In this document: piece by piece, positions 25,961 to 44,944 of the stretch
How the letters are laid out: every line of letters starts with the position of its first letter
Numbering within the stretch: position 1 is the first letter of the stretch
NCBI GenBank assembly: GCA_041652815.1
Contig: JBAZGN010000001.1
Location: forward strand, 317,855 to 381,854
Direction of reading: 5' to 3'
Origin: Candidatus Omnitrophota bacterium
Lineage (GTDB): Bacteria; Omnitrophota; Gorgyraeia; Duberdicusellales; 4484-171
Length of the DNA: 64,000 nt
The notes under the pieces: model-generated
Seen by the model: the letters and a program-made list of their open reading frames with translations, nothing else
The model's database searches: none
Told to the model about the DNA's origin: nothing
Translations under genes and position numbers: made by a program

Positions 25961-25974
25961 CATATTGTCATACG

Positions 25975-26105
25975 GCTATGGGTTGCGCCACTCGTTACGT
26001 CTATCGTTAATCGGTTGCGTTTTAAATGACGATAGACGATTAACGTAACCGAGACGAGCTCGCCCGCCTCCGGCGGACAGGCAACCGCAACCGATTTACG
26101 CAACC
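25975..26105. repeat. Compound palindrome, GCGGTTGCG / CGATAGACG family (F1), nested inside CACAGAT arms
   Basis: ggttgcgccactcgttacgtctatcgttaatcggttgcg...cgatagacgattaacgtaaccgagacgagc...caaccgcaaccg. Confidence 0.85.
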
Positions 26106-26106
26106 G

Positions 26107-26142
26107 CTATCTGTGATTTCTTATCTGTGCCAATCTGTGTGG
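26107..26142. repeat. CACAGAT-family right arm (ATCTGTG x3)
   Basis: ctatctgtgatttcttatctgtgccaatctgtg. Confidence 0.8.
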
Positions 26143-26157
26143 AAAAAAAGTTTTCCA

Positions 26158-27189
26158 ATGGAAACAGAAGTTAAAAAACTGGAAGAAGAATTCGGGAAGG
26201 ATTTATCAGGGGTTTGTGATGCTTTAGGTATTGAGGCGCTACGAGTAAAATACCTCGGAAGAAAAGCTGAAATTAACCGGCTTTTTTCAATGGTTCCCTC
26301 CTTAAGCAAAGAAGCAAAAGGCATCTGGGGTAAGAATTTAAACATTCTTAAAAATAAAATATCACTTGCCATTGAAGAAAAATTAAAAAGTTTAGGCACG
26401 AAAGAGGAAAAAATCGATTTAACTTATCCCGCAGCCAGGCTGGAAAAAGGAAGCCGCCATATTTTAAGTGCGGTAAGCGAAGAAATTTGTTCGGTTTTTG
26501 AAAAGCTTGGGTTTACCGTAGTTGAAGGAACCGAAATAGAAGATGAATGGCATAACTTTAGCGCTTTAAATATACCGCTGGATCATCCTTCGCGCGATGC
26601 TTTCGATACTTTTTATCTGGATATACCGCAGCCGCAAGAAAAACACAGAGGAAAGTTTTTGCTGCGCAGCCACACCTCGCCGTCTCAAGCACGCGTGATG
26701 AGCGTATCCAAACCTCCCCTTGCGGTTATTTCTCCGGGAAGAGTTTACAGGCCGGATGCAGTTGATGCTTCGCATTCTTTTATGTTCCATCAGGTTGAAG
26801 GTTTTGCCATAGATAAAAACATAAATTTTGCGCACCTTAAAGGCGTGCTTCTTAATTTTGTAAAACTCTTTTTTTCTCCCGATGTTAATTTGCGTTTCCG
26901 GCCGCACTTTTTTCCTTTTACTGAACCTTCGGCTGAAGTTGATATTTCATGTTTTATCTGTAAGGGCAAAAAAGATAAATGCAGCTTATGTAAAGGAAAA
27001 GGCTGGCTCGAAATACTTGGCTGCGGAATGATTCATCCCAAAGTTCTTGAAAATTGCGGTATAGATTCGAAAAAATACAAAGGCTTTGCGTTTGGTATGG
27101 GGGTGGAACGGCCGGCAATGCTTAAATACGGCATAAATGATATTCGGCTGTTTTATGAGAATGATGTTAAGTTCCTTGAACAATTTTAA
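26158..27189 (+). CDS. pheS: Phenylalanyl-tRNA synthetase alpha subunit
   Basis: Class II motifs (FRPHFFPFTEPS, GFAFGMGVERPAML). The start METEVKKLEE at 26158 is preferred over the ORF-track 26113. Confidence 0.9.
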   Translation: METEVKKLEEEFGKDLSGVCDALGIEALRVKYLGRKAEINRLFSMVPSLSKEAKGIWGKNLNILKNKISLAIEEKLKSLGTKEEKIDLTYPAARLEKGSRHILSAVSEEICSVFEKLGFTVVEGTEIEDEWHNFSALNIPLDHPSRDAFDTFYLDIPQPQEKHRGKFLLRSHTSPSQARVMSVSKPPLAVISPGRVYRPDAVDASHSFMFHQVEGFAIDKNINFAHLKGVLLNFVKLFFSPDVNLRFRPHFFPFTEPSAEVDISCFICKGKKDKCSLCKGKGWLEILGCGMIHPKVLENCGIDSKKYKGFAFGMGVERPAMLKYGINDIRLFYENDVKFLEQF

Positions 27190-29922: not shown

Positions 29923-30576
29923 ATGGACACCCATAAAACAAAGTCTATGAAAAACATTGAAGAGCAAATGCAAAACGTAGGAGAGGATTCTTTGCGCTAC
30001 CATGTACTTGAGAGTGCCAAGAATTTTAAAACATCCTGGGTTGCATTGGGCCGTTCGCTTTATACAGTATGGAAGGATAAGCTTTATAAAGATTGGGGTT
30101 TTAATACGCTGGAAGGCTATACTTCCAAGGAAATCGGCATAAAAAAATTAACTGCGATGAAATTGCTGCGGTCTTATTATTTTCTTGAAAAAGAAGAGCC
30201 GCAATACTTAAGTTCCGAATACGCGGAGCAAGCTCCGGCAACTACAGTTCCTACTTATGAATCCGTTGATTTACTTCGAAAAGCAAAAAATAACAAAATT
30301 CTTGATAACCAGGATTACGCAAATCTTAAAAAAGATATATTTGAAAAAGGAAGAGATGCCCAGGTCGTAAAGAAAGATTTAACTAATTTAATCAGGCAGC
30401 GTAAGGAAATCGACCCTGAAGAGAGCCACGAAAAAGAACGCGTAAGCGTTATAAAAAGATACTTAAGCGTGTTAAAATCCATGAAAAAAGAAATAGAAAT
30501 ATCAAAACTCCTCCCCCCGACACTCCTTAAAGAAACTGAGAGCTTGATAAAGAAGCTGGAGGAAGAAGTATCTTAA
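29923..30576 (+). CDS. Hypothetical protein (217 aa)
   Basis: ATG at 29923 (MDTHKTKSMKN). No recognisable domain. Charged, helical C-terminus. Confidence 0.45.
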   Translation: MDTHKTKSMKNIEEQMQNVGEDSLRYHVLESAKNFKTSWVALGRSLYTVWKDKLYKDWGFNTLEGYTSKEIGIKKLTAMKLLRSYYFLEKEEPQYLSSEYAEQAPATTVPTYESVDLLRKAKNNKILDNQDYANLKKDIFEKGRDAQVVKKDLTNLIRQRKEIDPEESHEKERVSVIKRYLSVLKSMKKEIEISKLLPPTLLKETESLIKKLEEEVS

Positions 30577-30581
30577 TTTTA

Positions 30582-30688
30582 GGTTACGAATGTTACGAAA
30601 GTTACGCAGGTTACGAAGGTTACAATAAATCTAACTGTTTTTAAATGTAACTTTCGTAACTTCCCGTAACATCCGTAACCTTCGTAAC
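30582..30688. repeat. Compound palindrome, GGTTACGAAGG family (A2), between convergent genes
   Basis: taggttacgaatgttacgaaagttacgcaggttacgaaggttacaa...cttcccgtaacatccgtaaccttcgtaac. Confidence 0.9.
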
Positions 30689-30689
30689 A

Positions 30690-31667
30690 TTAATTATCAG
30701 GCAAGCTGTTTATAAAGGTAAGCAATTCGCTGTAACTATTAACTTTACATATTGAGCCGCGCACTCTGGCGCAGGCCTCAAAATCCCTAAGATACCACAG
30801 GCTAATTTTCCTCATAAAACCGACCCTTACCGAATCTTTTACTTCCTTATATTTTTCTAAAAGGCTAAGGTGCTTTTTAAGCACTGCCTTTCTTATTTCC
30901 ATGTTTACCGCAGTTACAGCTTTACCTTCCATGTAATTAGCGATATCTTTAAGCATCCATGGCCTTCCTAAAGCGCCCCTCGCCACAAGAATTCCGTCGC
31001 AACCCGTTTCATCAAACATTTTTTTTGCTAAGTGCGGTATCAGAATATTCCCGCTGCCAAATACAGGAATATTTACTGCATCTTTTATTGCTTTTATTAA
31101 ATTATAATCAACGTTTCCGCTATAGCCTTGAGTTTTAGTCCTGCCGTGGACAAAAAGAGCAGCTGCGCCGCTACCTTCGCATGATTTTGCCAGTTCGGTT
31201 ATCTGTTTTTTATCTTTGTCCAGATAGCCTACCCTGATTTTCGCTGTTACCGGAACATTGAGGCTGCTTGAAAGTTTTTTGATGATTTTTGATAAAGCCT
31301 CGAGATCATTTAATAAATAGGCACCGCATTTTTTCTTAATCACTTTTCTTACCGGACAGGCGCAATTGATATCTAAAAAAGAAATACCCGTTAAATCTAT
31401 AAGCTGATGTGCGGCTTCCAGCATTTTTTCCGGGTCCCTTCCCAGTAACTGTCCGGCAATAGGCTTGTCTTCCTCGGTTGTCTTAATGAGTCTTAAGCTG
31501 CGAATCCGGCTATAAATGAGAGAGTTGGCATCCAGCATCTCAAAGAAACAAAATTTAGCGCCATGTTCACGGCAAATAAGCCGGAAAGCCAGGTCAGAAC
31601 ATCCTGCCAGAGGAGCAAGGAATACATTGGTATTTATAACTTTAGAGCCTATTTTGATTGAATGCAT
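30690..31667 (-). CDS. dusB: tRNA-dihydrouridine synthase
   Basis: FLAPLAGCSDLAFR, LDINCACPVRKV and the C-terminal helical domain. The symbol is assigned by family only. Confidence 0.8.
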   Translation of the reverse strand: MHSIKIGSKVINTNVFLAPLAGCSDLAFRLICREHGAKFCFFEMLDANSLIYSRIRSLRLIKTTEEDKPIAGQLLGRDPEKMLEAAHQLIDLTGISFLDINCACPVRKVIKKKCGAYLLNDLEALSKIIKKLSSSLNVPVTAKIRVGYLDKDKKQITELAKSCEGSGAAALFVHGRTKTQGYSGNVDYNLIKAIKDAVNIPVFGSGNILIPHLAKKMFDETGCDGILVARGALGRPWMLKDIANYMEGKAVTAVNMEIRKAVLKKHLSLLEKYKEVKDSVRVGFMRKISLWYLRDFEACARVRGSICKVNSYSELLTFINSLPDN

Positions 31668-31677: not shown

Positions 31678-31771
31678 ATAGAAGCGGATTCCCGCGGAGC
31701 TAAACGCGGATGTACGCACGGTAATCGGTTTGCATTTATCCGCGTTGATATCCGCGGCCATCCGCTTCTAT
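31678..31771. repeat. Compound palindrome, CCGCGGATA family (K1), with perfect 12-bp terminal inverted repeats ATAGAAGCGGAT / ATCCGCTTCTAT
   Basis: Seen directly. The paralog K2 at 37790-37883 has identical termini. Confidence 0.9.
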
Positions 31772-31892
31772 TTCTTCAAAAAACACTTGACTAAAAAACC
31801 TTTAATAGTAAAATTTTACTATTAAAATTTAACTAAAGCACCTCAGCTTTTAAGGAATGCCTAGTGTGCGCTTTCCGTGTAAGGAGGACCAT

Positions 31893-33416
31893 ATGAATGT
31901 AAAAGAATTACTTATAAACCAAGCTTCGTTATTTCCTCAAAAAAGCGCTTTTATCTTTGAAGGCAAAGAAACAACCTTTTTGCAACTCAAAGATGCCGCA
32001 TTTAAGATTGCCAATTATTTTACAAGGCAAGGCATAAAAAAGCCAGATAAAATTGCTATTTTTACCCCAAACACTCCGGAAGCTATTTGTGCGCAGATGG
32101 CGGCATATTCTATAGGTGCAACCTTGATACCTTTTGATTACATGCTCACAGAAAATGAGATTATTCATTTCTTAAACCATAGCGAAGCAAAAGTATTAAT
32201 CATGCAGCCGAGAAAAGACATAAACGTATTAAACATCCGGGAAAACTGTTATTCTGTAAAATATATAATAACCTGTAAAGAGCGCCTTGCGGATTGCGAT
32301 TTCCTTGATGATCTTTTGGCAGAGGAAAGTAGTGAAGCTCCGATTCCGCAATCTTTTGATAAAGACCTCGCGGCAATATTTTATACCTCAGGCTCAACTG
32401 GCCACCCTAAGGGCGTAATGCTTAGCTATAAACAGTTTGATAATCCGGTTGATACAATAAACCATTTTTTAGGGGTTTCGGAAAACGATGTTTATTGTAC
32501 CGGCGGCATACCTTTTTCCCATGTGGGCGGGCTTAATTACCTGCTTTTAATGATTCGTTTTGCATCAACCGTTATTGTAATGGGAAGGTTTCATCCGATG
32601 GAATTTTTAAAAAATATAGAAAGATATAAAGTCACGATATTTTGCATAGTGCCTTCGATGTATGTTGCGATTTTATCTCTAAAAGAATACGAGAGGTTTA
32701 ACCTTTCGTCTTTAAGGTATGCAGTTGTTTTTGGTGCGCCTTCTTCGCCTCTTTTGCTTAAGAAATTTCACAGGTCATGCCCTAAAGCAATTGTTTTAAA
32801 CGGTTGGGGTATGACTGAAACCGCCGCTCCGAATACTTTTTCGCCCCCGGACGAGCATAAGATATCCAGCATAGGGAAATTCGGATTTCGTATGCAGGCA
32901 AAGATAATCGATGAGGAAGGAAAATCTTTGTTATATGGAGAACAAGGCGAATTATTAGTCAGCGGAGAAGGTGTTACCGGCGGCTATTACAGAGAGCCGA
33001 CCTTAAGCTCAGATGCTTTTTGGGGAGAAGGGTGGCTGCGTACCGGCGATATTGCTTATTTTGGAAAAGACGGGCTGATATATCTTGCCGGGAGAAAAAA
33101 GGACATGATAAAAGTTGCCGGTGAGATAGTTTTTTCCTCGGAAGTTGAAGAAAAAATACAGCTCTATCCAAAGGTTAAAGAAGTTGCTGTCATAGGTGTT
33201 GCCGATGAATTAAGAGGAGAAGTGCCGAAAGCTTTTATTGTTGCAAAAGAATCTGAAGTGATAGATGCTCAGGAGCTAAGGGATTTTTTAAAAGAGCATC
33301 TGGCTCATTTTAAAATTCCGCATTATTTTGAATTTATAAAAGAACTTCCAAAAAATAGAGTGGGAAAAATCGACAAACAGGCACTTAAGAAAACACAGAT
33401 TAGCACAGATTTGTAA
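31893..33416 (+). CDS. AMP-dependent synthetase/ligase (acyl-CoA or aryl-CoA ligase)
   Basis: YTSGSTGHPKGV AMP-binding motif, C-terminal KIDKQALKK. SD AAGGAGG before ATG 31893. Confidence 0.85.
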   Translation: MNVKELLINQASLFPQKSAFIFEGKETTFLQLKDAAFKIANYFTRQGIKKPDKIAIFTPNTPEAICAQMAAYSIGATLIPFDYMLTENEIIHFLNHSEAKVLIMQPRKDINVLNIRENCYSVKYIITCKERLADCDFLDDLLAEESSEAPIPQSFDKDLAAIFYTSGSTGHPKGVMLSYKQFDNPVDTINHFLGVSENDVYCTGGIPFSHVGGLNYLLLMIRFASTVIVMGRFHPMEFLKNIERYKVTIFCIVPSMYVAILSLKEYERFNLSSLRYAVVFGAPSSPLLLKKFHRSCPKAIVLNGWGMTETAAPNTFSPPDEHKISSIGKFGFRMQAKIIDEEGKSLLYGEQGELLVSGEGVTGGYYREPTLSSDAFWGEGWLRTGDIAYFGKDGLIYLAGRKKDMIKVAGEIVFSSEVEEKIQLYPKVKEVAVIGVADELRGEVPKAFIVAKESEVIDAQELRDFLKEHLAHFKIPHYFEFIKELPKNRVGKIDKQALKKTQISTDL

Positions 33417-33436
33417 GCGAATGAGCACAGATTGCA
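33395..33436. repeat. CACAGAT-family left arm (outer arm around E2)
   Basis: cacagattagcacagatttgtaagcgaatgagcacagattgc. Confidence 0.8.
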
Positions 33437-33438
33437 AT

Positions 33439-33588
33439 AAATAACCAAGTTCCAAGATACAATAACCAAACAATGGCCAATAACCAAATTTCAATAACCA
33501 AACAAAAAAATAACAAATCCGTTTGGTTATTGGGTATTGAATATTGTAATTTGTTTGGAACTTGTATCTTGGTTATTGGTTATTTCTA
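33439..33588. repeat. Compound palindrome, AACCAAACAA family (E2), nested inside CACAGAT arms
   Basis: aaataaccaagttccaagatacaataaccaaacaatggccaataaccaaat...ccgtttggttattgggtattgaatattgtaatttgtttggaacttgtatcttggttattggttatt. Confidence 0.9.
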
Positions 33589-33589
33589 A

Positions 33590-33640
33590 AATATCTGTGG
33601 TTATCTGTGATTTTTTATCTGCGATCATCTGTGTATAAAA
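33590..33640. repeat. CACAGAT-family right arm
   Basis: atatctgtggttatctgtgattttttatctgcgatcatctgtg. Confidence 0.8.
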
Positions 33641-33652
33641 AGGAGTAAAACA

Positions 33653-34381
33653 ATGATGCAAAGAGATGTGCACTTGCACGCAAAAGGATTACTTGAATCT
33701 TTACAATTCCGCCAGGGTGATTTTGGCGAAATCGGCATTATCAGCGGACAAATGCAGCGAGCCCAAAGATGCCTTCAGTATCTGGAAAATCCTGTAAAAA
33801 ATTTTACTTTTTTGGGTTACACTTTCTGGACAGGTATATATAAAGGAAAGAAAGTCACTGTAGGCAATGGCGGTTTCTATGCACCGGATTCAGCGTTTGT
33901 CACGGAAATTTTATGCGTGGGAGGGATTAAAACACTTATCCGGCTTGGCTCCTGTGGGGCAATGTTGCAGGAAATGACTGTTGGAGATTTTGTCGTGGTT
34001 GATAAAGTTATCAGAGGTGATGGAGCCACGCGCTATTACGTCGATGATAATTTTGTTCCGCAAGTGGACAAAGAATTATCCAAAAAGTTAGTAACAATTT
34101 TTGAAAAACAGGGCAAAGTTTATCAGGGTGCCTGCTGGACTACTGATGCAATGTTTAGAGAAACAAAGGAAATCGTAAATCCTTATATAGAAAAAGGCGC
34201 AATTTGTGTGGATATGGTAACCAGCCCGTTTGTTACTGTCGCTAATGTTTATAAAACAAAGGTTGCCGCTATCTTGGTAGTTTCGGATAATCTTTTAACC
34301 GGCGAAATGGGTTTTGCCGATTTTCGTTTGTTCGATGCAGAAGAAAAAATGACAAAAACGGTGTTTGAGATTATTGCCTAA
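33653..34381 (+). CDS. PNP/UDP family-1 nucleoside phosphorylase (candidate MTA / 5'-deoxyadenosine phosphorylase)
   Basis: IRLGSCGAM, TVGNGGFYAPDSA and an ICVDMVTS-like C-terminal motif, characteristic of DeoD/MTAP-type phosphorylases. Confidence 0.65.
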   Translation: MMQRDVHLHAKGLLESLQFRQGDFGEIGIISGQMQRAQRCLQYLENPVKNFTFLGYTFWTGIYKGKKVTVGNGGFYAPDSAFVTEILCVGGIKTLIRLGSCGAMLQEMTVGDFVVVDKVIRGDGATRYYVDDNFVPQVDKELSKKLVTIFEKQGKVYQGACWTTDAMFRETKEIVNPYIEKGAICVDMVTSPFVTVANVYKTKVAAILVVSDNLLTGEMGFADFRLFDAEEKMTKTVFEIIA

Positions 34382-34389
34382 CAAATTTG

Positions 34390-34470
34390 TATCACGTCGC
34401 ACGTATCACGTATCACGTATCACGTCTTTTTAAAACCTGTTACGTGCTACCTGATACGTGGTACGTTAAA
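34390..34470. repeat. Compound imperfect palindrome, GTATCACG x4 facing CGTGCTACCTGATACGTGGTACG
   Basis: Seen directly. It overlaps the false 5' extension of the next ORF. Confidence 0.75.
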
Positions 34471-34482
34471 AGAGAGGTTTAT

Positions 34483-34746
34483 ATGCCCGATATGCAATGG
34501 AGTGCAAAAGCAAAGGAAATTTTTGATAAGGTGATCAGCAATCTTCCGCAATTTCATCGCTCAATTGCCGAAAGATTAGTTAAAGAGTCAGCTGAAGAAA
34601 TTGCTAAAAACAAAAATATGGCTATGGTCGAGGAAAAAGAACTTATAGAGGCATTTTTTAAAGAAATACCCCCGGCGTTTAAAGATATGTTGAAAAGATT
34701 ATTGACTAAGCTGGGTATTGACTACGAAAAATACGGAGTTTCTTGA
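34483..34746 (+). CDS. Small cytoplasmic protein (87 aa) of unknown function
   Basis: SD AGAGAGG before ATG 34483 (MPDMQWSAKAKEIF). Helical. Confidence 0.45.
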   Translation: MPDMQWSAKAKEIFDKVISNLPQFHRSIAERLVKESAEEIAKNKNMAMVEEKELIEAFFKEIPPAFKDMLKRLLTKLGIDYEKYGVS

Positions 34747-34751
34747 TGGCA

Positions 34752-34842
34752 CAGATTAGCACAGATTTTAAAGCGGATGATCACAGATAAAAACCATCTG
34801 CGATCATCTGTGATCTCTTTCTGTGATCATCTGTGTAATAAA
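34752..34842. repeat. Stand-alone CACAGAT-family palindrome (3 CACAGAT words / 3 ATCTGTG words, 7-nt loop)
   Basis: gcacagattagcacagattttaaagcggatgatcacagataaaaaccatctgcgatcatctgtgatctctttctgtgatcatctgtg. Confidence 0.9.
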
Positions 34843-34852
34843 AAAATATAAT

Positions 34853-36469
34853 ATGAAAATAGCGGTTATAGGCCCAGGGGCAATCGGCGGTTTAGTTGCA
34901 GGGTATCTTAAAGAGCAGGGCGAAGACGTATCCCTTGTTGGCACTAAAGATACAGTTGAAGCAATTAATAAGAAAGGCCTGTCAATTTCCGGTGTGCGTG
35001 GGAATGTTAAGGTAAATATTCAGGCGGCAGTTTCTTTAGATAAAAAAGTAGACCTTATAATTTTAACTACCAAAACACAGGATATAGAAAAGGCCTTAAG
35101 GGAAAATAAGCAATATCTGGCAGGCGCAATTATTTTAACCGCGCAAAATGGTGTAGAGGCTGACGAAATTGTTGCGCAATTTGTTCCCAGGGAAAATATT
35201 ATCTCAAGTATTGTAATGTTTGGCGCAACATACCTTAAGCCGGGCGAGATAGTTCATAATTTTGAGAGAAAATGGGTAATCGGCAAGCCTTTCGGCAAAA
35301 ATGATGATTGGGTTAAGCGTGTGTCTATATTGCTTGGCAGGATTTTTCCTATAGAAATAAGTGATGATATCAAAGGAATGAAATGGCTTAAAGTTTTCGC
35401 AAATGCCAATAACTGCATTGCGGGTATTACCGGCAAAAGCATGCAGGAGTGTTTCGCTAATTTGGATTTATGTGAAATAAGTCTCGGTATTTGGCAGGAA
35501 GGCTTGGGCGTGATTAAAAAAGCCGGCATAAAGCTGGTTAATTTGCCTGATTTTACCGTAGAACAAGTAACAAAACTTACATCTTTACCCATAAAAGAAG
35601 CAGCAAAGATATTTTCCGGCATAATGATAAATTTAAGCAAAGAACCTCTATACGGTTCAATCTTGCAAAGCATTAAAAGAGGCAAGGCTTCAGAAATAGA
35701 TTATTTAAACGGAGCATTTGTTAAATTAGCAAGACAATGCGGATATCACACCCCTTTAAATAAAAAATTAACGGAGCTGGTGCATAAAGTTGAAGAGGAG
35801 CATAAATTTTTTACGATAGATGACCTGATTGAAAAAACAAAAAATTTAATCCCGCAACAAAGCTGCGATGATAGTGGCAAGGTAAACACTCCTTTTCCAA
35901 AACTTAAGCTTACCGTGGTAAAGGTTGAGGGAGATTGTTATCACGGCTATAAACAAGGCGATGAAATAGTTTTGGAAGATTTTACCCATCCGCCAAAGCA
36001 TTTTTGTTTGGGCTTAGCCCATGCTTTGTTTCCCGTAATTTACGCTTTAAGTTTTGGCGCAAAATTTGGTTTTCGCGATAACCAGCGTTCGCTTTTAGTA
36101 ACCTGCCCGGACGGCGGAAAACTTGAATTTAAAGCAGAAATCTTCGATAAGGAAGGAAAAATCGAAGTAATAGAAAAAGACCCAAATCATAAAGGGCCAA
36201 ACCCTAAAGAAATGGTTTTGGAGGTAGTGCAATCAAAAGGCAAGTGCGCTTACGGCTACAAATTAGGCGACAGAATAGAAGTTAAAGGGCTAAAGTGCCC
36301 GGAAGGATTTTGCGGCGCAGCATACCATTGTGCATTTCCCGCGCTTTTCGCACTTAACTTCGGCGCAAAATTCTTCTTTATGGATGACCCGGATGGTATT
36401 AATACCGTAACCTGCCCGGATGGCGGGAATATTGTGTTTAAGGTGAGCCGCAAAAAAGTCAGTCTATAG
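34853..36469 (+). CDS. Ketopantoate-reductase-like (ApbA/PanE) NAD(P)-binding enzyme fused to a tandemly duplicated Cys-rich ~95-aa domain (TIGR04076-like)
   Basis: N-terminus MKIAVIGPGAIGG with an ApbA_C signature (GKASEIDYLNGAFVKLARQCGYHTPLN). The C-terminus has two repeats sharing G.C.[HY]GYK.GD ... FC ... FP.[IL][YF]AL.FGA ... VTCPDGG ... FK. Confidence 0.7.
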   Translation: MKIAVIGPGAIGGLVAGYLKEQGEDVSLVGTKDTVEAINKKGLSISGVRGNVKVNIQAAVSLDKKVDLIILTTKTQDIEKALRENKQYLAGAIILTAQNGVEADEIVAQFVPRENIISSIVMFGATYLKPGEIVHNFERKWVIGKPFGKNDDWVKRVSILLGRIFPIEISDDIKGMKWLKVFANANNCIAGITGKSMQECFANLDLCEISLGIWQEGLGVIKKAGIKLVNLPDFTVEQVTKLTSLPIKEAAKIFSGIMINLSKEPLYGSILQSIKRGKASEIDYLNGAFVKLARQCGYHTPLNKKLTELVHKVEEEHKFFTIDDLIEKTKNLIPQQSCDDSGKVNTPFPKLKLTVVKVEGDCYHGYKQGDEIVLEDFTHPPKHFCLGLAHALFPVIYALSFGAKFGFRDNQRSLLVTCPDGGKLEFKAEIFDKEGKIEVIEKDPNHKGPNPKEMVLEVVQSKGKCAYGYKLGDRIEVKGLKCPEGFCGAAYHCAFPALFALNFGAKFFFMDDPDGINTVTCPDGGNIVFKVSRKKVSL

Positions 36470-36530
36470 TCGACAGTCGATAGTCCATAGATTAAAACTG
36501 TGGACTGTAGATTATGGACTGTGGACTAAA
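36458..36530. repeat. Compound palindrome, GGACTATGGACT family (H1)
   Basis: agtctatagtcgacagtcgatagtccatagattaaaactgtggactgtagattatggactgtggact. The paralog is at 60299. Confidence 0.85.
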
Positions 36531-36545
36531 ATAGGAGATAGAAGA

Positions 36546-37793
36546 ATGAGACGAGTAGTCATAACCGGCATTGGCGTAATCTGTGCAGCTGGCGAGGATA
36601 AAAACACTTTTTACGATAATATTGTCGCCGGTAAACCCTTTATTGAAAGAGTAGAGAATTTTGATGTAAGTTTATTTGTGTCAAAAATAGCTTCACAGGA
36701 TTTAGGCTTTGACCCGCTCAAATTTGGCATAAAAGACCACCAGCGTATGGATAGATATGTCCAATTTGGTATTGCCGCGGCAAAACAGGCAGTTGAAGAC
36801 AGCCACATTGATTTTAATAAAATAAACAGAAAAAAATGCGGTGTAATTTTAGCAAACGCAATTTGCGGCACGCGTTTTATGGAGGAGGAATTCCTTCTTG
36901 TAACTGACTGGGGAAAGAGGCCAATCGATCCGCGTAAAGGCCGGCCTTATCTTTATGATGCGGCAATGTTTAATACGCCAAGCGCAGAAATCGGAGCAAT
37001 TTATCATACGCAAGGGCTTAATTGCACGGTTTCTACCGGTTGCACTGCTGCTACAGATTCTTTAGGATTTTCTTTTGAACTTATCCGCGAAGGCAGGCAG
37101 GATATAATTATTGCCGGTGGTACTGAAGCGCCGGTTTGCCCGATTACTTTTGGAGCTTTTGACGTGGTAAATGTTTTGGCAAAAAATAACGATGAACCGC
37201 ATAAAGCCAGCCGGCCTTTCGATAATAAAAGAAACGGTTTTGTAATTTCTGAAGGCGCGGGCGTTGTAGTGCTTGAAGAATTAGAGCACGCAAAAAAGCG
37301 CGGCGCGCATATTTACGGAGAATTGGTTGGTTACGGTACAAGCTGTAATGCCTTTCATATGACGGATTTACCTGAGGACGGCGAAGCGATGGAGCGCTGC
37401 ATCAAAGATGCGATGAAAGACGCAGGAGTTAAAAATGAAGATATAGACTATATAAATACGCATGGCTCATCAACCAGGCAAAATGACGTTTTTGAGACAA
37501 ATGCTTACAAGGCAGTGTTCGGTGATTATGCTTACAAAATTCCGATAAGCTCTATAAAATCAATGATTGGCCATCCTTTGGCGGCAGCCAATGCTGTAGA
37601 GAGTGTTTTATGCGCGATGATTTTTGAAAAAGGATATTTGCCCCCCACGATAAATCAGGAAGAGCCAGACCCAAAATGCGATTTGGATTATATTCCAAAC
37701 GTGAAAAGACAATATATGCCTAATTACATATTAAAAACAAGCAGCGGATTTTCCGGAATACATTCGTCTATTATATTTAAGAAATATAAATAG
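36546..37793 (+). CDS. Beta-ketoacyl synthase, KS-alpha (FabF-like, catalytically complete)
   Basis: Cys in STGCTAATDS, His in INTHGSSTRQND, His in SMIGHPLAAANAVE. The stop codon TAG lies inside the terminus of repeat K2. Confidence 0.85.
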   Translation: MRRVVITGIGVICAAGEDKNTFYDNIVAGKPFIERVENFDVSLFVSKIASQDLGFDPLKFGIKDHQRMDRYVQFGIAAAKQAVEDSHIDFNKINRKKCGVILANAICGTRFMEEEFLLVTDWGKRPIDPRKGRPYLYDAAMFNTPSAEIGAIYHTQGLNCTVSTGCTAATDSLGFSFELIREGRQDIIIAGGTEAPVCPITFGAFDVVNVLAKNNDEPHKASRPFDNKRNGFVISEGAGVVVLEELEHAKKRGAHIYGELVGYGTSCNAFHMTDLPEDGEAMERCIKDAMKDAGVKNEDIDYINTHGSSTRQNDVFETNAYKAVFGDYAYKIPISSIKSMIGHPLAAANAVESVLCAMIFEKGYLPPTINQEEPDPKCDLDYIPNVKRQYMPNYILKTSSGFSGIHSSIIFKKYK

Positions 37794-37883
37794 AAGCGGA
37801 TATCCGCGGATAGCTACGCGGATAAACGCCAGCGAATTTCTGTGCGTCTATCCGCGTTTAAATCCGCGGCAATCCGCTTCTAT
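37790..37883. repeat. Compound palindrome, CCGCGGATA family (K2), termini ATAGAAGCGGAT / ATCCGCTTCTAT
   Basis: atagaagcggatatccgcggatagctacgcggataaacgcc...gtctatccgcgtttaaatccgcggcaatccgcttctat. Confidence 0.9.
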
Positions 37884-37897
37884 AGTAAGGAGCTTAA

Positions 37898-39130
37898 ATG
37901 AAAGAACGTGTAGCAATAACAGGCGTGGGAGTTGTTTCACCAGCCGGTTTAAAAAAAGAAACTTTTTGGGCAAATTTGAAACGAGGCGACTCATTTATAG
38001 ATGAAGTTACGCGCTTTGACGCATCGCTTTACCCGTCTCGCATAGCCGGCCAGGTTCATGAGTTGGATCATTATTCGCATTTGCCAAGCCGCCTGGTAAA
38101 AAAGATTGATGTGTTTTCTCATATGGCGCTTGTTGCAACCGAGCAGGCTTTGCAAGATGCAAAGATAGATTTAAATAACGTTGATAAAAAACGTGTAGGC
38201 GTTTTTATGGGTAATGCTATCGGCGGCTGGCTTTTTGCCGAAACCGAACTACGCGATATGTATATTGAAGGCAGAGAAGGTGTATCTCCCTATATGGCTT
38301 CTGCCTGGTTTCCAGCAGCACCCCAAGGGCAAATTACAATTTTCTATGGATTTAAGGGCTACAGTAAAACTGTGGTAGCTGACAAGGCTTCTTCTGCGCT
38401 TGCTCTGTGGTATGCGGCGAAAAATATAAGCGAAGGCAAAAATGATTACGTTGTCGCCGGAGGAATGGAAGCGCCAATTACGCCATACGCGCTTTTAAGT
38501 TCCAATTCCTGCGGCCAACTGTCCAAAAATAACCTTAACCCCAGGAAAGCTTATAAGCCTTATGATTTATATCGAGACGGTTTTGTTTTAGGCGAGGGCT
38601 CCGGAATAGTAAATTTAGAAAAAGAAGAGCATGCCAAAAAAAGAGGGGCACACATTTATGGATTTTTAAAAGGCGTTGGTTTTTCCTCCGATGGTTATCA
38701 TTATGAACGTTATAGCCCGAATTCAGAAAGTTTTGAATATGCAATAGAAGAGTGTTTAAAAGACGCAGGCTGGGCAAAAAAAGAAGTAGATTATATTTGT
38801 TTGGATGCAGAAGCGACAACTATGGGCGATTATCTTGAAACGCAAGCGTTAAAAAATGTGTTCGGAAAGGAACTAAAAAATATTTCACTTAGTGCGCCAA
38901 AGAGTATGTATGGAAACCTTTTAGGTGCACAAACGGCACTGGATTTGATATCAACATTGTATTCAATGAGTAACAACCTGGTCTTCCCGACAATTAATTA
39001 CGAGATGAACGACCCTTATTGCGATTTGGATTATACGCCAAATGTTGCAAGGGAAAGAAAAATAAATAAAGCCCTGCTTCTTGCTCGCGGAAGAGGTGGG
39101 ATAAATGTGGTATTAGCTATTGAAAAGTAA
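37898..39130 (+). CDS. KS-beta / chain-length-factor-like ketosynthase paralog (all three catalytic residues substituted)
   Basis: It aligns with KS-alpha throughout. The active-site Cys position reads VVADKASSAL, and both His positions are replaced (LDAEATTMGD and MYGNLLGAQTA). Confidence 0.75.
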   Translation: MKERVAITGVGVVSPAGLKKETFWANLKRGDSFIDEVTRFDASLYPSRIAGQVHELDHYSHLPSRLVKKIDVFSHMALVATEQALQDAKIDLNNVDKKRVGVFMGNAIGGWLFAETELRDMYIEGREGVSPYMASAWFPAAPQGQITIFYGFKGYSKTVVADKASSALALWYAAKNISEGKNDYVVAGGMEAPITPYALLSSNSCGQLSKNNLNPRKAYKPYDLYRDGFVLGEGSGIVNLEKEEHAKKRGAHIYGFLKGVGFSSDGYHYERYSPNSESFEYAIEECLKDAGWAKKEVDYICLDAEATTMGDYLETQALKNVFGKELKNISLSAPKSMYGNLLGAQTALDLISTLYSMSNNLVFPTINYEMNDPYCDLDYTPNVARERKINKALLLARGRGGINVVLAIEK

Positions 39131-39133
39131 ATT

Positions 39134-39240
39134 AGGTTACGAACGTTACGAAAGTTACGCAGGTTACGAAGGTTACAATAACCTTAAGTGTTTCAAGGGT
39201 AACCTTCGTAACTTCCCGTAACATCCGTAACCTTCGTAAC
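39134..39240. repeat. Compound palindrome, GGTTACGAAGG family (A3)
   Basis: ttaggttacgaacgttacgaaagttacgcaggttacgaaggttacaa...cttcccgtaacatccgtaaccttcgtaac. Confidence 0.9.
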
Positions 39241-39260
39241 ATACAATAAGGAGGTTTTAA

Positions 39261-39494
39261 ATGGCATTAAAAGAAGACGTTGTGAATGCGATTGCCGACA
39301 TCTTGGATGTAAAAGCTGATGAATTGAAAGATAGCGAAAAATTATACGATTCAGTTGGAGTAGATTCAACAGAAATGGTTGAACTTTGCGTTTCTTTGGG
39401 GAAAAAGTTCGGCGTAAAAATTGCCACAAATGAAATAACAAAATCTTCAACACCGCTTGAAATAACGGCGTTGATTGAAAAGAAGAAGCAATAA
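39261..39494 (+). CDS. Acyl carrier protein
   Basis: 77 aa. The phosphopantetheine-attachment Ser sits in GVDSTEMVEL. SD AAGGAGG. Confidence 0.8.
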   Translation: MALKEDVVNAIADILDVKADELKDSEKLYDSVGVDSTEMVELCVSLGKKFGVKIATNEITKSSTPLEITALIEKKKQ

Positions 39495-39495
39495 T

Positions 39496-39558
39496 TAGCT
39501 GTCAGCCATCAGCTTTCAGCTATCAGCTGAAGACTGACGACTGAAGGCTGAAAGCTTA
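39496..39558. repeat. Compound palindrome, CAGCTGAAAGCTG family (B4)
   Basis: agctgtcagccatcagctttcagctatcagctgaagactgacgactgaaggctgaaagct. Confidence 0.85.
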
Positions 39559-39563
39559 TAAAT

Positions 39564-40367
39564 ATGCAAATAATCGATTTAAGCCTACCAATTGACGATC
39601 GTGCCTTTGAAGTGCATCACGTTGAAATTGAGCGCGTATCTCATAAGGCAGGAGTTGAAAAATTTAACCGCGTTTTAATGGGGAAAACCTTAAAAGGCAA
39701 GCTCCAATATATATTAGGTAAGCGTATTGTTAAAAAAGAAGACTTGCCGAATGAAGAGTTTTTATCTTTGGAAATCGTGCATTCACCGGTTCATATCGGC
39801 ACACATTTAGATTATTCTTTCCATTACGGTTCAAAGTCAGAAGGCCGCGCCTCTAAAACTGCGGAAGAAATTCCTCTTGAATGGTGCTATCAAAATGGCG
39901 TTAAGCTCGATGTTTCGCATAAAAAATCAAACGAAGCGATAACGGCGGCAGATTTAGAAAACGCTTTAAAGAAAATAAACTATACGTTAAAGCCCTTAGA
40001 TATTGTTTTATTATATACAGGAGCTGATAAATTATACGGAGGCCCAAAATATTTTAGCGATTACCCGGGCGTAGACATTTCGGCGATAGATTATCTTTTG
40101 GATAAAGGTATTAAAATCTTTGGCGTAGACACTATGGGCATAGACCGGCCATATAGATTTATGCTTAAAGAATTTTTGGAAACCAAGGACACGAAAAAAT
40201 TATATCCAGCACATTTCTATGGAAGAAAACGCGAATTTATTCATATAGAACGATTAGCAAATTTAGATAAATTACCTGACTTTGGATTTAAGATTATTTG
40301 TTTCCCCGTAAAAATTAAGTGTACCGGGGCTGCCTGGGCAAGAGCAGTTGGGATAATTAAAAGCTAA
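39564..40367 (+). CDS. Cyclase-family protein (PF04199; kynurenine-formamidase / polyketide-cyclase fold)
   Basis: The HIGTHLDYSFH motif matches the HxGTHxDxPxH metal site, plus GVDTMGIDRP. Confidence 0.7.
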   Translation: MQIIDLSLPIDDRAFEVHHVEIERVSHKAGVEKFNRVLMGKTLKGKLQYILGKRIVKKEDLPNEEFLSLEIVHSPVHIGTHLDYSFHYGSKSEGRASKTAEEIPLEWCYQNGVKLDVSHKKSNEAITAADLENALKKINYTLKPLDIVLLYTGADKLYGGPKYFSDYPGVDISAIDYLLDKGIKIFGVDTMGIDRPYRFMLKEFLETKDTKKLYPAHFYGRKREFIHIERLANLDKLPDFGFKIICFPVKIKCTGAAWARAVGIIKS

Positions 40368-40424
40368 CGCAGATTTACGCAGATAATTTACCTAAGATCA
40401 CCTGCGTTAGGAAAAGGAGGAAGA

Positions 40425-41204
40425 ATGAAGAAGGGAATGAATTTTTTAAGTATAACTAAAATTTCGTTCTACTTATTTTGTTTGCTAATTCTTTTTGTTT
40501 CTTGTTCCAGCAAGCCAGCATATACAATTAGGAAATTTCCAAATGGTAAGGAAATCAAAGTCTTAAATATAGGAACAATGTATAACCCATCTTTAAATGG
40601 CCCCGCTTTGTTATTTAACTATGAAACGGATGCCAATTTTGAGGATAGAGCAGCTATAGATAAAGAAGTGCAAGAAATCTGGAATTATTTTCGTCTTGAT
40701 GCAGAAGAGCAAGGTTTTAAGAATGCAATAATCAAAGTGAACTCAACGTACAATAAAGTATTTTTTATGCGACTCAATAAAACTCGTTGGTTTTTCTTCA
40801 AAAAAGACAGAAATAATGATTGGCAATTAGGAGATAGCAGTATTTCTAAAAAAGAACTTTTTGATCAAGGAGTAACCTTAATTAAGGGAAAAAATTACGA
40901 TGAGGCTATAGCCAAATTTACTAAAGCAATAGAAATGGATCCTGGACTCTATGTTGCTTATAATGGGCGAGGGGCTGCTTATTGTGAAAAAGGAAATTTT
41001 AACCTTGCTATAGTTGATTTGAATAAAGCAATAGAAATTAATCCAAATTATGCCCCGCCTTACAATAATCGTGCGGCTATATATCTTTCCAAAAAAGAAT
41101 ACGATAAAGCTTGGATAGATGTGCATAAGGCAGAGTCTTTAAGCTATAAAATTAATCCAGAACTTCTTGAAAAACTTAAGAAAGAATCCGGCCGAGAAAA
41201 ATAA
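40425..41204 (+). CDS. Lipoprotein with C-terminal TPR repeats
   Basis: Signal peptide plus lipobox LFVSCSS. Three TPR units (AIAKFTKAIEMDP, LAIVDLNKAIEINP). Confidence 0.65.
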   Translation: MKKGMNFLSITKISFYLFCLLILFVSCSSKPAYTIRKFPNGKEIKVLNIGTMYNPSLNGPALLFNYETDANFEDRAAIDKEVQEIWNYFRLDAEEQGFKNAIIKVNSTYNKVFFMRLNKTRWFFFKKDRNNDWQLGDSSISKKELFDQGVTLIKGKNYDEAIAKFTKAIEMDPGLYVAYNGRGAAYCEKGNFNLAIVDLNKAIEINPNYAPPYNNRAAIYLSKKEYDKAWIDVHKAESLSYKINPELLEKLKKESGREK

Positions 41205-41283
41205 TTTTAGTTTCTATAAGTTTTTATTCGTGGTAATTCGTCTTTAATCCGTGGCCATTCGTGTCAAAAGAAAGGAGGTTAAA

Positions 41284-41724
41284 ATGGGACATACAGTTAA
41301 TTCAATTATAATCAATGCGCCTTACGAGAAAATTTTTGATATCTCTAATGACATTGAACGTTGGACAGAATTATTTGGTGATGAATATAAAGAAGCAACC
41401 GTGGAAAAGAAAGAAGGCAACAAAATAACTTTTAAACTTATGGATGATGAAGGTAGAACCTGGAAATCATGGCGGCTTTTATTCAAAGATAAGAATTTTG
41501 CCTATGCCGAGCGCGAAGAGCCGAAATTTCCTTTTAAGTTTATGAAAATCATCTGGCTTTATATACCAAGGCCAAGCGGCATTGAAATGGTTTGGATCCA
41601 GCATTTTGAAATGGATGAAAAAGCTAAATTTAATGACGAGCAGGTAGAAGGTTTCATCAATAAGCATTCTAAAGATAATTTGAAGATATTTAAGGACGTA
41701 ATTGAGAAAGAAGCAGGTAGATAA
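41284..41724 (+). CDS. SRPBCC (Bet v1-like) polyketide cyclase/dehydrase-family protein
   Basis: The HTVNSIIINAPYEKIFDISNDIERWTELF N-terminus matches the Polyketide_cyc2 signature. SD AAAGGAGG before ATG 41284. Confidence 0.65.
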   Translation: MGHTVNSIIINAPYEKIFDISNDIERWTELFGDEYKEATVEKKEGNKITFKLMDDEGRTWKSWRLLFKDKNFAYAEREEPKFPFKFMKIIWLYIPRPSGIEMVWIQHFEMDEKAKFNDEQVEGFINKHSKDNLKIFKDVIEKEAGR

Positions 41725-41725
41725 A

Positions 41726-41850
41726 ACGATTACAGTTGCGTCAAGCGGTTGCGGTTGCGCCGCTCGTCACGGTTGCGTCTAACGTAAGACGTAACCGCAT
41801 GACGAAACGAGTCGCGTAACCGATAGACGCAAAACGTAACCCCATAGATA
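41726..41850. repeat. Compound palindrome, GCGGTTGCG family (F3)
   Basis: gttgcgtcaagcggttgcggttgcgccgctcgtcacggttgcgtctaacgtaagacgtaaccgcatgacgaaacgagtcgcgtaaccgatagacgcaaaacgtaacc. Confidence 0.85.
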
Positions 41851-41868
41851 ACGAGATAAGTTCAATTT

Positions 41869-42990
41869 ATGAATAAGCTAACTTTTGTTATTCTCTGTTT
41901 GGAGGGCGCAATTCTTTCTTTTAATGTTGCTGCGGCAGCTGCGCTTATCCCCTCTGTTGCAACAGATTTTGGAGTTTCCGAGTTTATTGCCGGAAGAATT
42001 GTCTGGCTTTATATGATTCCTTACGGCTTTGCCGCTCTCCTTTACGGCCCCTTGGTGCGGGCGTTTGACGCGAAAAAGATTGAGCTAATTTGCCTTTTAT
42101 CTTTTTCCGCGGCGAATCTATTAGCTGCTTTTTCAAAAAATATCGCGATGCTCTTTGCGGCGAGATTCTTTATGGGAGTTTTTGGCGCATCTGTTATACC
42201 TCTTGCTTTAATTTTAATAGCGCAGTCATTTGCCAGCGAAAAAAGAGGAAAAATAGTTGGGCTATTTTTTGCCTCCACATTCATCGCTTCGCTTCTCGGG
42301 TTATTTTTAAGCGGTATTTTACCCTGGCGCTTGATTTTCTTGTTGCCGGCCATTGCCGGATTTTTGCTTTTGCCTTTAATGTATTTTTATCTGCCGCGTT
42401 TTGCGCCGGAAAATAAAAAATTTGCCATCAATTATATAGAGCCGTTTAAAGATAAGGTTATATTGTATATGTTTACCTATATATTTATTATAAGCTTACT
42501 TTACCACGGCCTGCAGCAATGGCTCTCGGTTTATTTCTCTACCAAATATAGCCTGGGGCAGTTTGCAATCAGCATGCTTATTACTTTAACCAGTTTAAGC
42601 GGCATATTTGGAGAAACCATCGGTGGAATGCTTGCCGATAAAATTGGCAGGATAAAGACCGTTAATTTAGGAATAATTTTAATGATTATAAGTGTATTAT
42701 TTCTTATTTTTAAAATGCCGGTTTTTATACTTGGTTTGATTATGATTATCTGGGGGCTGGGTTGGACATTTAACCATGCGGGAATCTCTACAATGCTTAC
42801 GGATCTGCCTAAAAAATTTTTACATGAAGCCGCAAGCTTAAATTCAAGTGTACGTTTTGTCTCCGGCGGTATTGGAGTGGCTGCTTCAGGGTTGATTATG
42901 CAAAAAAGTTTTATTGCCGGATTTATGTTATTTGGTGGCTGTTTAATTGCATTATTACTTTGTACGAAATATCTGGTTATTAAAATATAA
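41869..42990 (+). CDS. MFS transporter (putative product exporter)
   Basis: 373 aa with about 12 TM segments and MFS motifs (FFMGVFGASVIPLAL). Confidence 0.75.
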   Translation: MNKLTFVILCLEGAILSFNVAAAAALIPSVATDFGVSEFIAGRIVWLYMIPYGFAALLYGPLVRAFDAKKIELICLLSFSAANLLAAFSKNIAMLFAARFFMGVFGASVIPLALILIAQSFASEKRGKIVGLFFASTFIASLLGLFLSGILPWRLIFLLPAIAGFLLLPLMYFYLPRFAPENKKFAINYIEPFKDKVILYMFTYIFIISLLYHGLQQWLSVYFSTKYSLGQFAISMLITLTSLSGIFGETIGGMLADKIGRIKTVNLGIILMIISVLFLIFKMPVFILGLIMIIWGLGWTFNHAGISTMLTDLPKKFLHEAASLNSSVRFVSGGIGVAASGLIMQKSFIAGFMLFGGCLIALLLCTKYLVIKI

Positions 42991-42994
42991 ACTT

Positions 42995-43131
42995 AGGTTA
43001 CGAACGTTAGTGAGGTTACGCAGGTTACGAAGGTTACAACAAACCTTCGATATTTGAAATGTAACATTCGTAACTTCCCGTAACTTAATTCTTCCGTCGA
43101 AGGTGGAAGAATTAACGTAACCTTCGTAACT
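42995..43131. repeat. Compound palindrome, GGTTACGAAGG family (A4), with an extra internal hairpin cttccgtcgaaggtggaag
   Basis: Seen directly. Confidence 0.9.
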
Positions 43132-43151
43132 TATAATTTAAGGAGGAGAGA

Positions 43152-43928
43152 ATGAGTAGCGAGCTTAAAGGTAAAACTGCAATTGTAACCGGCGCAAGCC
43201 GCGGGATAGGCAAGGCTCTTGCTTGTGTGGCAGCAAGTTTAGGCGCGAATGTAGCTATCGCAGCAAGAGGGGAAGGGCCGCTTAAAGAAACCGCTGCGGA
43301 GATAGAGAAAAAATATAAAGTTAAGGTTCTGGCCGTTCCCTGCGATGTTACAAAACTGGAAGATCTAGAAAACTTAGTAAATAAAACAAAAGAAAAATTT
43401 GGACAGATAGATATTTTGATAAATAATGCAGGAGTTTCTAGCCAATATCCTTTTGAAAAACAGCCGATTGAAGATTTTGAGCGTCTCGCCCATACAAACT
43501 ATTTAGGTTATGTGCGCTTGATTCGTTTGGTGATAAACGATATGATAAATAGAAAATCTGGGGCAATAATCAATATGGTTTCCGGCTCAACGCTTTGTGA
43601 CCCCCTTCCGAGAAATTTTATTGTTTATAGCTCATTGAAAGTAGGGCTTCGCGCTTTTTCTAAAGCTCTGTTTTGGGAAATGCGCGACCACGGTATAAAA
43701 GTTACTTCGCTTTTACCGGGAGTCACAGATACCGATTTAACAGGTAAATTGGAAGAAATAACAGCAAACGCCTCGCGCTTGATGACCACAGAGGCTATTG
43801 AAAATGCAGTGAGGTTCGCTTTAACTGTTCCGGCGAATGTCTGTCCGCTTGAGATAGCAGTTATTAATCAGCAAACGCCATGGACAAAGCCGGTGATACC
43901 GTATAAGCAGGATCATCCTAATAAGTAG
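43152..43928 (+). CDS. SDR-family ketoreductase (FabG/ActIII-like 3-oxoacyl-ACP reductase)
   Basis: TGASRGIGKA cofactor motif, NNAG, catalytic YSSLK. Confidence 0.85.
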   Translation: MSSELKGKTAIVTGASRGIGKALACVAASLGANVAIAARGEGPLKETAAEIEKKYKVKVLAVPCDVTKLEDLENLVNKTKEKFGQIDILINNAGVSSQYPFEKQPIEDFERLAHTNYLGYVRLIRLVINDMINRKSGAIINMVSGSTLCDPLPRNFIVYSSLKVGLRAFSKALFWEMRDHGIKVTSLLPGVTDTDLTGKLEEITANASRLMTTEAIENAVRFALTVPANVCPLEIAVINQQTPWTKPVIPYKQDHPNK

Positions 43929-43963
43929 AGAGTAGCAAGTAAAGAGTAGAGAGAGGAGGTATC

Positions 43964-44896: not shown

Positions 44897-44944
44897 TAAC
44901 TTTATTCCAAAGTAAAGGAACATTTTAAATAAGGAGGAAATGCG

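Follow-up and report, generated by a model that had tools for sequence, protein, structure and literature searches.

A 64,000-nt stretch of DNA from a Candidatus Omnitrophota bacterium (contig JBAZGN010000001.1, positions 317,855 to 381,854; hereafter the window) carries two 94-nt copies of an inverted repeat, which we designate K. One copy lies between the two ketosynthase (KS) genes of a type II polyketide synthase (PKS)-like cluster and supplies the stop codon of the first. With moderate confidence, we consider K to be a non-coding, non-autonomous, mobile palindromic element that resembles miniature inverted-repeat transposable elements (MITEs), comes near in anatomy to the hairpin-forming doublets of repetitive extragenic palindromes (REPs) known as REPINs, and occurs mainly in Candidatus Omnitrophota. 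This reading draws on repetition, a hairpin, insertion polymorphism, a rule of position and the supply of stop codons, and it would add to these transposition in trans, duplication of a TA target and a filter imposed by selection. The two copies and the genes beside them are as follows.

30690..31667, minus strand: dus, encoding tRNA dihydrouridine synthase (PF01207, E 2.4e-69), with its start codon (31667) 10-11 nt from copy 1, which lies upstream.
31678..31771, no strand: K copy 1, conserved core 31679-31770 (TAGAAGCGGAT...ATCCGCTTCTA), in a divergent intergenic region, 15 nt upstream of the -35 box of the PKS operon.
36546..37793, plus strand: KS-alpha ketosynthase, 415 amino acids (PF00109 and PF02801), stop codon inside copy 2.
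37791..37793, plus strand: the TAG stop of KS-alpha (protein end ...FKKYK), formed by the first three bases of the conserved terminus, with 448 open codons upstream.
37790..37883, no strand: K copy 2, conserved core 37791-37882, between KS-alpha and KS-beta.
37887-37892 and 37898-37900, plus strand: Shine-Dalgarno (SD) sequence AAGGAG and ATG start codon of KS-beta.
37898..39130, plus strand: KS-beta, chain-length factor-like (PF00109 and PF02801), downstream of copy 2.

The sequence ATAGAAGCGGAT occurs at exactly four sites in the window, 31678-31689 and 37790-37801 on the plus strand and 31760-31771 and 37872-37883 on the minus strand. These form two inverted pairs, such that both copies read ATAGAAGCGGAT...ATCCGCTTCTAT. 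The expected count by shuffling is 0.50, none of 100 shuffles reached four, and the word CGCGGAT is likewise enriched in the window (18 observed, 6.2 expected); together with the hairpin z-scores given below, these counts rule out a chance repeat. The copies match each other better inverted (83-84% identity) than direct (76-77%), and thus lie in opposite orientations; copy 1 matches the family profile with an nhmmer E of 3.9e-23. The perfect 12-bp terminal inverted repeats that the original prediction ascribed to both copies are therefore real, although the invariant part of the terminus across the family is 11 bp, TAGAAGCGGAT...ATCCGCTTCTA (26 pattern-defined copies; TAGAAGCGGAT is equivalently TA + GAAGCGGAT). 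The outer T on the left and outer A on the right lay outside the search pattern, yet were found in every pattern-defined copy, whereas the 12th base varies, being A in 76% of left and T in 51% of right termini (41 copies).

Alignment of 24 to 34 copies gives a left arm of TAGAAGCGGAT, NN, CCGCGGA(T), NNNN, ACGCGGAT, NN, ACGC, followed by the apex and a right arm of GCGT, NN, ATCCGCGT, NNNN, ATCCGCGG, NN, ATCCGCTTCTA. Each arm has three near-invariant xCGCGGAT words at a spacing of 10-12 nt, the outermost of which sits in the 11-bp terminus. The spacers (2x2 and 4x4) keep their size but not their sequence, and are hardly ever complementary, leaving mismatched loops. Spacers that face each other across the stem tend to be alike in composition, either T-rich on both sides or A-rich on both, as if modules were flipped independently, and an attempt to find one consistent orientation of the asymmetric internal loops failed for the same apparent reason. 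The element, 88-94 bp long and with no protein-coding open reading frame (ORF) seen within either window copy, is a palindrome over its full length, that is, one long imperfect hairpin of which the terminal inverted repeat is only the stem base. The terminal repeats and variable word arrays of the original prediction thus stand, but the full-length palindrome had been missed.

Folded as RNA, copy 1 has a minimum free energy (MFE) of -52.6 kcal/mol (z -8.0 against shuffles) and copy 2 one of -58.1 kcal/mol (z -10.1), and the complementary strand of both folds equally well. When MFE and G-U counts were compared in 23 copies, the sense strand folded better in 8 and the antisense strand in 15; both orientations relative to transcription occur among K copies. 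Rfam 15 offers no match: the only hit in the window to pass the gathering threshold is a tRNA, and what copy 2 yields at E<=1 is a chance match that falls short of its threshold (23.7 of 211 bits). A strand-specific structured RNA was rejected on the absence of a sense advantage and of an Rfam match. Neither copy was reported by a terminator scan, and no T-run or U-tract, as would mark an intrinsic (Rho-independent) terminator, follows the stem, whose mixed A/T flanks run into the SD sequence. The right end of copy 2 and its flank (37857-37886) form a weak sigma-70-like site facing KS-beta (TTTAAA, 18 nt, TATAGT; 9/12), which is no better than chance in AT-rich DNA.

Compensatory changes were seen in only 2 of 22 stem pairs of the alignment, so the words are conserved as sequence and not merely as pairs, and selection on structure alone is not supported. 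Conservation of this kind, with words 10-12 bp or about one helical turn apart, is what arrays of binding sites for a host DNA-binding protein might look like, iteron- or operator-like with three phased CGCGGAT words per arm. We think this highly improbable, as the words of other hairpin families in this genome recur every 7 or 9 nt, the copies lie inside operons and not at promoters (only copy 1 is near one), and the promoter next to copy 1 carries a conserved palindrome, probably an operator, of its own; nor did a candidate protein emerge.

K is a multi-copy, MITE-like family with conserved termini, as had been proposed. A scan of one genome per species with the pattern AGAAGCGGAT-N55-85-ATCCGCTTCT returned 102 stretches, many of them chance or coding matches (unrelated ones include a conserved 84-nt coding stretch of Verrucomicrobia and Rhodobacterales and a 104-nt one of Nitrospira). 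They comprised about 20 K elements in one Omnitrophota metagenome-assembled genome (MAG), SO_2017_LW3_58, further K elements in two more Omnitrophota MAGs, in two MAGs labelled Planctomycetia and in Candidatus Taenariivivens, and more diverged K-like elements in two MAGs of the candidate phyla radiation. A profile search of all retrieved sequence gave 42 non-redundant K-like copies, mostly from Candidatus Omnitrophota MAGs, a count that takes in truncated, nested and 32-56-nt short forms. The fragmented MAG SO_2017_LW3_58 holds 21 copies with a median pairwise identity of 84%, the best pair (98.9%) being on one contig.

K-like elements with the same termini were also seen in MAGs assigned elsewhere, namely L014 and L103 (Sungiibacteriota), L035 and L092 (Jorgensenbacteria), and L007/L025/L076 and L017 ('Planctomycetia'), which could reflect horizontal spread, mis-binning or wrong taxonomic labels. 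Two elements (L021 2899-3102 and L062 3511-3761) are split in the apex by 115-150 nt of AT-rich DNA, and both still supply or adjoin the upstream stop. Two contig ends of the same MAG (L003 19-109 and L037 38-128) overlap in one K copy, identical and reverse-complemented; these repeats therefore break assemblies.

The case for mobility comes from orthologous operons, which were taken from assemblies and a metagenome scan and allowed comparison of about 45 KS-alpha/KS-beta junctions. The 120 KS-alpha orthologues are named Candidatus Omnitrophota or Omnitrophica wherever the source gives a name, and the order of the KS genes and their neighbours is conserved across many Omnitrophota MAGs. At most junctions the two genes overlap (ATGA, TAATG) or lie 0-5 nt apart, and none of the other orthologues examined has a K element there; in the closest relatives (L105 and L109-L111, 95-96% amino-acid identity) the overlap is ATGA. 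In the window, the 92-nt core of copy 2, a -57 kcal/mol stem, now separates the genes, so the inference that this copy was inserted between them holds. The few lineages with a hairpin at this junction have different families: K in the window, a TAGTC-word family in L113, in which the TAG is again the KS-alpha stop, and an ACAAAT-word family in L119. Elsewhere in the orthologous operon, K is found between the ApbA-like reductase gene and KS-alpha in L104 and L151, between KS-beta and the acyl carrier protein (ACP) gene in L104 and L119, and, as a 32-nt mini form (terminus, CCGCGG, terminus'), at the stop of the PNP gene in L105, while the window has it at dus/AMP-ligase and at KS-alpha/KS-beta. 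Such presence/absence and replacement polymorphism at orthologous junctions is the signature of mobility.

Decay of the orthologous K copies in L104 and L151 points the same way. They are 81% identical, much like their flanking coding DNA (83% and 80%), their stem mismatches are uncompensated, and their folding energies are -34 and -43 kcal/mol, against about -55 kcal/mol for young copies. This decay, the strand symmetry and the lack of a U-tract or Rfam match favour a selfish DNA element whose seeming conservation stems from recent copying off active masters, and speak against a hairpin that an RNA function keeps in place.

Comparison of KS-alpha proteins indicates that copy 2 supplies the stop codon without detectably altering the protein. 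Translation ends ...IIFKKYK followed by the TAG within the left terminus, as the original prediction stated, and at least the G of this TAG derives from the element. The further claim that the element shaped the 3' end of the gene does not survive, because the KS-alpha of P0010/L104 (92% identical), whose junction has no element, shares the FKKYK end, its stop at the corresponding codon being a TAA with the ATG of KS-beta 11 nt further on, and because 415 amino acids is the commonest orthologue length. Copy 2 parted KS-alpha from KS-beta and now gives the TAG stop, with the FKKYK C-terminus kept. That it truncated a longer KS-alpha with an ATGA overlap was also considered, since removal of 90 bp restores the overlap; given the element-free FKKYK end in L104, this idea is kept only as one of two reconstructions (below). 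The C-terminus really is changed at the same junction in L130, L134 and L156, where words of a CACAGAT family are translated as ...ADD[HR]R. The read-through ends are ...KYRADDRR (L130, about 1000-1150), ...KYNADDHR (L134) and ...RFNADDHR (L156), the repeat words encoding the last 5-6 KS-alpha residues plus the stop.

Stop-codon supply extends well beyond copy 2. For all 42 copies, we asked whether an ORF reads into the TAG of the terminus on the gene-facing strand. In 13-14 of them, this TAG closes an ORF that exceeds 120 codons or extends to the edge of the contig; about 16 others have a long ORF whose stop lies 0-8 nt ahead of the element. The downstream start codon usually lies 10-21 nt past the element, with GGAG in between in most copies. 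At the KS-alpha/KS-beta junction, the conserved terminus ends at 37882, with the SD sequence starting 4 nt past it and a gap of 15 nt between it and the ATG; copy 1, 10-11 nt from the dus start, conforms to the rule on its downstream side. Both K ends read TAG inward, i.e., on both strands. Supply of the stop codon is thus a family-wide property, shown by about a third of copies, and not, as the original prediction treated it, the peculiarity of one. The simplest reading of the position rule would be a selection filter: in operons with 0-20-nt spacers, only the bases between stop and SD sequence may tolerate a 90-bp insert, and termini that read TAG would rescue landings on a stop codon or the last codons by ending the upstream ORF at once.

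As to how K moves, we propose that copies are made in trans, by an enzyme able to recognise both termini and words; this would leave the words near-invariant and the spacers and apex free to vary. The likeliest enzyme would be a TA-specific cut-and-paste transposase, because every copy is bounded by TA at both ends, where the TA is not distinguishable from part of the inverted repeat. TA-bounded ends are typical of bacterial MITEs (PMC2229807). Reconstruction of empty sites favours a TA duplication for the KS-beta/ACP copies of L104 and L119: deleting the element and one TA restores a TAA where about 25 orthologues stop, whereas deletion without duplication needs 5-6 extra residues that are absent from every orthologue. 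For the window copy, the alternative empty sites are AAATA/TAGTAAGGAG (one TA, duplication) and AAA/TAGTAAGGAG (no duplication). The first would add six codons to KS-alpha, up to a TGA overlapping the ATG of KS-beta, an attractive form to which L104 nevertheless lends no support. A 4-bp YTAR duplication of the IS5 type was rejected, as the base before the TAG is mostly A, not C.

Several observations weigh against a TA-duplicating MITE. Without duplication, the window copy reads AAA/TAG TAAGGAG...ATG, which leaves KS-alpha at its normal length and fits the orthologues better, and for several other copies a reconstruction with no duplication does as well or better. Of 17 stop-supplying copies read by eye, some of them weaker cases than those in the count of 13-14, 7 have A or G after the distal TA, which does not exceed the expectation from base composition. 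Among 53 metagenome loci, no empty site at strain level turned up, all relatives being 80-92% identical in nucleotides and the closest pairs 90-92%. We therefore regard the TA as a probable, not a demonstrated, target-site duplication. K elements are also GC-richer than their surroundings, unlike most MITEs. A Pfam scan of 50 window proteins detected no transposase domain, nor do the separately annotated PKS-cluster genes encode a transposase, no solo termini marking a full-length insertion sequence (IS) were present in 540 kb of related DNA, and no viral contig had a K match; these enzyme negatives are weak, since the genomes are incomplete and were sampled in part. A plain MITE model is weakest on the point that one genome holds many hairpin families with different words and the same architecture, so that one sequence-specific transposase per family seems unlikely.

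Copying of the REPIN type would need no target duplication, and the mixed evidence on the TA suits such a mechanism. Here, the ends would be REP-like units (5' flank TAGAA, palindrome GCGG-NNNN-CCGC) that form a single-stranded DNA hairpin and are copied by a single-copy HUH tyrosine transposase, either a REP-associated tyrosine transposase (RAYT) or an IS200-like one. The (A)TAG of K recalls the GTAG that lies immediately 5' of the stem in E. coli REPs. The size of about 90 bp, near-complete hairpin, conserved ends and variable, foldable spacer all match the published description of REPINs, and the 32-nt mini form of L105 resembles their 'a-palindrome-a^c' excision products (PMC3337134). However, the palindrome within each arm is only 4 bp (GCGG-N4-CCGC), K-like REP singlets are not seen as a class in the 540 kb, and tblastn with E. 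coli RayT gave no match (best E 3.1) in about 1.1 Mb, of which Omnitrophota and related DNA make up about 540 kb; with the genomes sampled only in part, this negative is weak. We judge this mechanism possible but unlikely.

K is one of many hairpin families in the window. An ungapped palindrome scan found only four elements, because most families carry indels between the arms, and was replaced by folding of intergenic gaps. Of 33 gaps of 55-420 nt between co-directional genes, 28 hold a hairpin of -20 kcal/mol or stronger. The stem foot lies a median of 2.5 nt from the stop codon, and the hairpins add up to about 3.2 kb, some 5% of the window. Their density, about one per 2 kb, is to our knowledge unusual for bacteria. 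They occur even inside housekeeping operons (V-ATPase, pheS/pheT, trk), and nested hairpins lie at 33375-33650, 25895-26160, 23685-23890 and 18575-18700. By word and period, the families are GTTACGNAN (period 9), TCAGCNN (period 7), CACAGAT, AATAACCAA, AAACTC, ACGCGAAT and TAGTC[GT]ACAGTC; a given operon junction usually carries different families in four related genomes. Three of them are located as follows.

36467-36528 and 60298-60375: TAG...CTA hairpin family (TAGTC[GT]ACAGTC...GGACTGTGGACTA), whose TAG is the stop of the upstream gene, an ApbA-like reductase and RNase Y, respectively (the relative in L113 supplies the KS-alpha stop).
15205-15320, 30574-30690, 39131-39245 and 42988-43100: four copies of the GTTACGNAN family (9-nt period); at 15211-15213, the TAG of the TTAGGTTACG foot is the stop of a V-ATPase B-like gene, and the other copies begin 1-6 nt past a TAA.
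34742-34842 and 57984-58084: CACAGAT family, which contains a AAGCGGAT word identical to the K terminus word.

CACAGAT/ATCTGTG and CGCGGAT/ATCCGCG are paired transitions apart, which, with the shared terminus word, hints that the CACAGAT and K families are related.

The regular layout of stop, 0-8 nt, hairpin, 10-21 nt with SD sequence, and start, seen with a hairpin in 28 of 33 gaps that include those of V-ATPase genes and pheST, raises the alternative that K elements are host-functional intercistronic RNA hairpins (mRNA stabilisers, processing sites or translation decouplers) kept by selection. RNase Y and YmdB are encoded in the window, and a host function of this kind has been proposed for the REPs and BIMEs of E. 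coli. Yet stability and G-U pairs show no strand bias, both orientations occur, no U-tract follows the stem and orthologous copies decay without compensation. The same junction in close relatives is empty or holds another family, and the ancestral state of KS-alpha/KS-beta was tight coupling. On this evidence, maintenance for a host function is very unlikely. Slightly less doubtful, and still only a tentative idea, is that K is a piece of a genome-wide system in which dozens of unrelated word-array hairpin families have their stem foot on a stop codon or a few nucleotides from it and, between close relatives, replace one another at the same operon junction. Such a system might be driven by a structure-specific mechanism that targets gene ends, or might be host operon punctuation (processing or decoupling) of polycistronic mRNAs; either variant seems quite unlikely at present. 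A mobile, MITE-like element remains our preferred reading of K.

The genes among which copy 2 is found belong to a cluster that, with a promoter next to copy 1, was annotated as follows.

31857-46402: type II PKS-like cluster, product unassigned (Pfam-based annotation).
31787-31822: promoter of the PKS operon (TTGACT, 16 nt, TAAAAT), overlapping a perfect 18-bp palindrome, ATAGTAAAATTTTACTAT, at 31805-31822.

The cluster encodes an acyl-CoA ligase, a PNP_UDP_1 protein, an ApbA reductase, KS-alpha, KS-beta, an ACP and a cyclase, as well as a TPR protein, a Polyketide_cyc2 protein, an MFS transporter, a ketoreductase and radical-SAM/B12 enzymes. Promoter and palindrome are conserved in four genomes, namely the window, L104 (about 885-930), L105 (about 1365-1410) and L107 (about 1990-2030), and the palindrome is probably a repressor operator. 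The window also encodes V-ATPase subunits, thrS, infC, rplT, trk genes, pheST and dus, along with radical-SAM enzymes, a two-component system, RNase Y, YmdB and dxs.

For the cluster itself, copy 2 has removed the tight KS-alpha/KS-beta junction and could alter the stoichiometry of the two subunits. More broadly, K documents a mobile-repeat family for Omnitrophota, a largely uncultured phylum in which a full-text literature search found no description of such repeats. The TAG on both strands of its termini would give a selfish element a way to live in very compact operons, because landing on a gene end does not lengthen the protein. Annotation of these genomes should reckon with repeats that shape stop codons and intergenic lengths and at which contigs break, and the density of the surrounding hairpin families may merit a study of its own.

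Among known repeats, heterocystous cyanobacteria have short tandemly repeated repetitive (STRR) heptamers, which by description form intergenic arrays of 7-nt words much like the TCAGCNN hairpin family of the window; K would differ in its longer, spaced words and defined termini. Tandem-heptamer hairpins of the form (AGCGGAT)n, loop, (ATCCGCT)n were seen in MAGs labelled Steroidobacteraceae, Steroidobacter or Gammaproteobacteria (L027, L039, L057, L063, L064, L068 and L086), with variant words mirrored on the other arm; they share the word-array architecture in a different phylum.

RUP of Streptococcus pneumoniae is a 107-bp MITE that is mobilised by IS630-Spn1, inserts at TA and has stop codons in all frames (PMC2229807). 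It shares its inverted repeats with this known partner IS, and no such partner of K turned up in the sampled sequence; RUP is also not a full-length word-array palindrome.

The Correia elements (NEMIS) found in Neisseria have the terminus TATAGCGGATTA, within which TAG and CGGAT likewise occur, and we know of no description of stop supply by a third of copies as a trait of that family. Like K, these elements are non-coding and multi-copy, have TA-bounded terminal inverted repeats and an end-to-end stem, measure about 100-155 bp, lie beside or between genes with which they are co-transcribed, and have no known cognate transposase (PMC2229807). They belong to a different phylum, apparently share no alignable sequence with K, the comparison being by description, and have a Neisseria-specific 26-bp inverted repeat and an integration host factor (IHF) site; K instead has three phased words per arm and regular mismatched loops, with no IHF site.

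REPINs, which are associated with RAYTs, are about 89 bp long and extragenic, reach high copy numbers within a genome, and share with K the near-perfect hairpin, conserved ends and variable, foldable spacer (PMC3337134; PMC3116915). They have been described mainly from Proteobacteria; for K, no RAYT was present in the sampled sequence, and the palindrome within each arm is minimal. K has the size, copy number, inverted repeats and insertion polymorphism of a MITE, the partner IS not being found in the sampled sequence. In its behaviour K parallels MITEs of the Correia/NEMIS, RUP and ERIC types, and in appearance it comes closest to a REPIN; we file it as a new member of the MITE/REPIN-like kind, leaving its way of movement between models.

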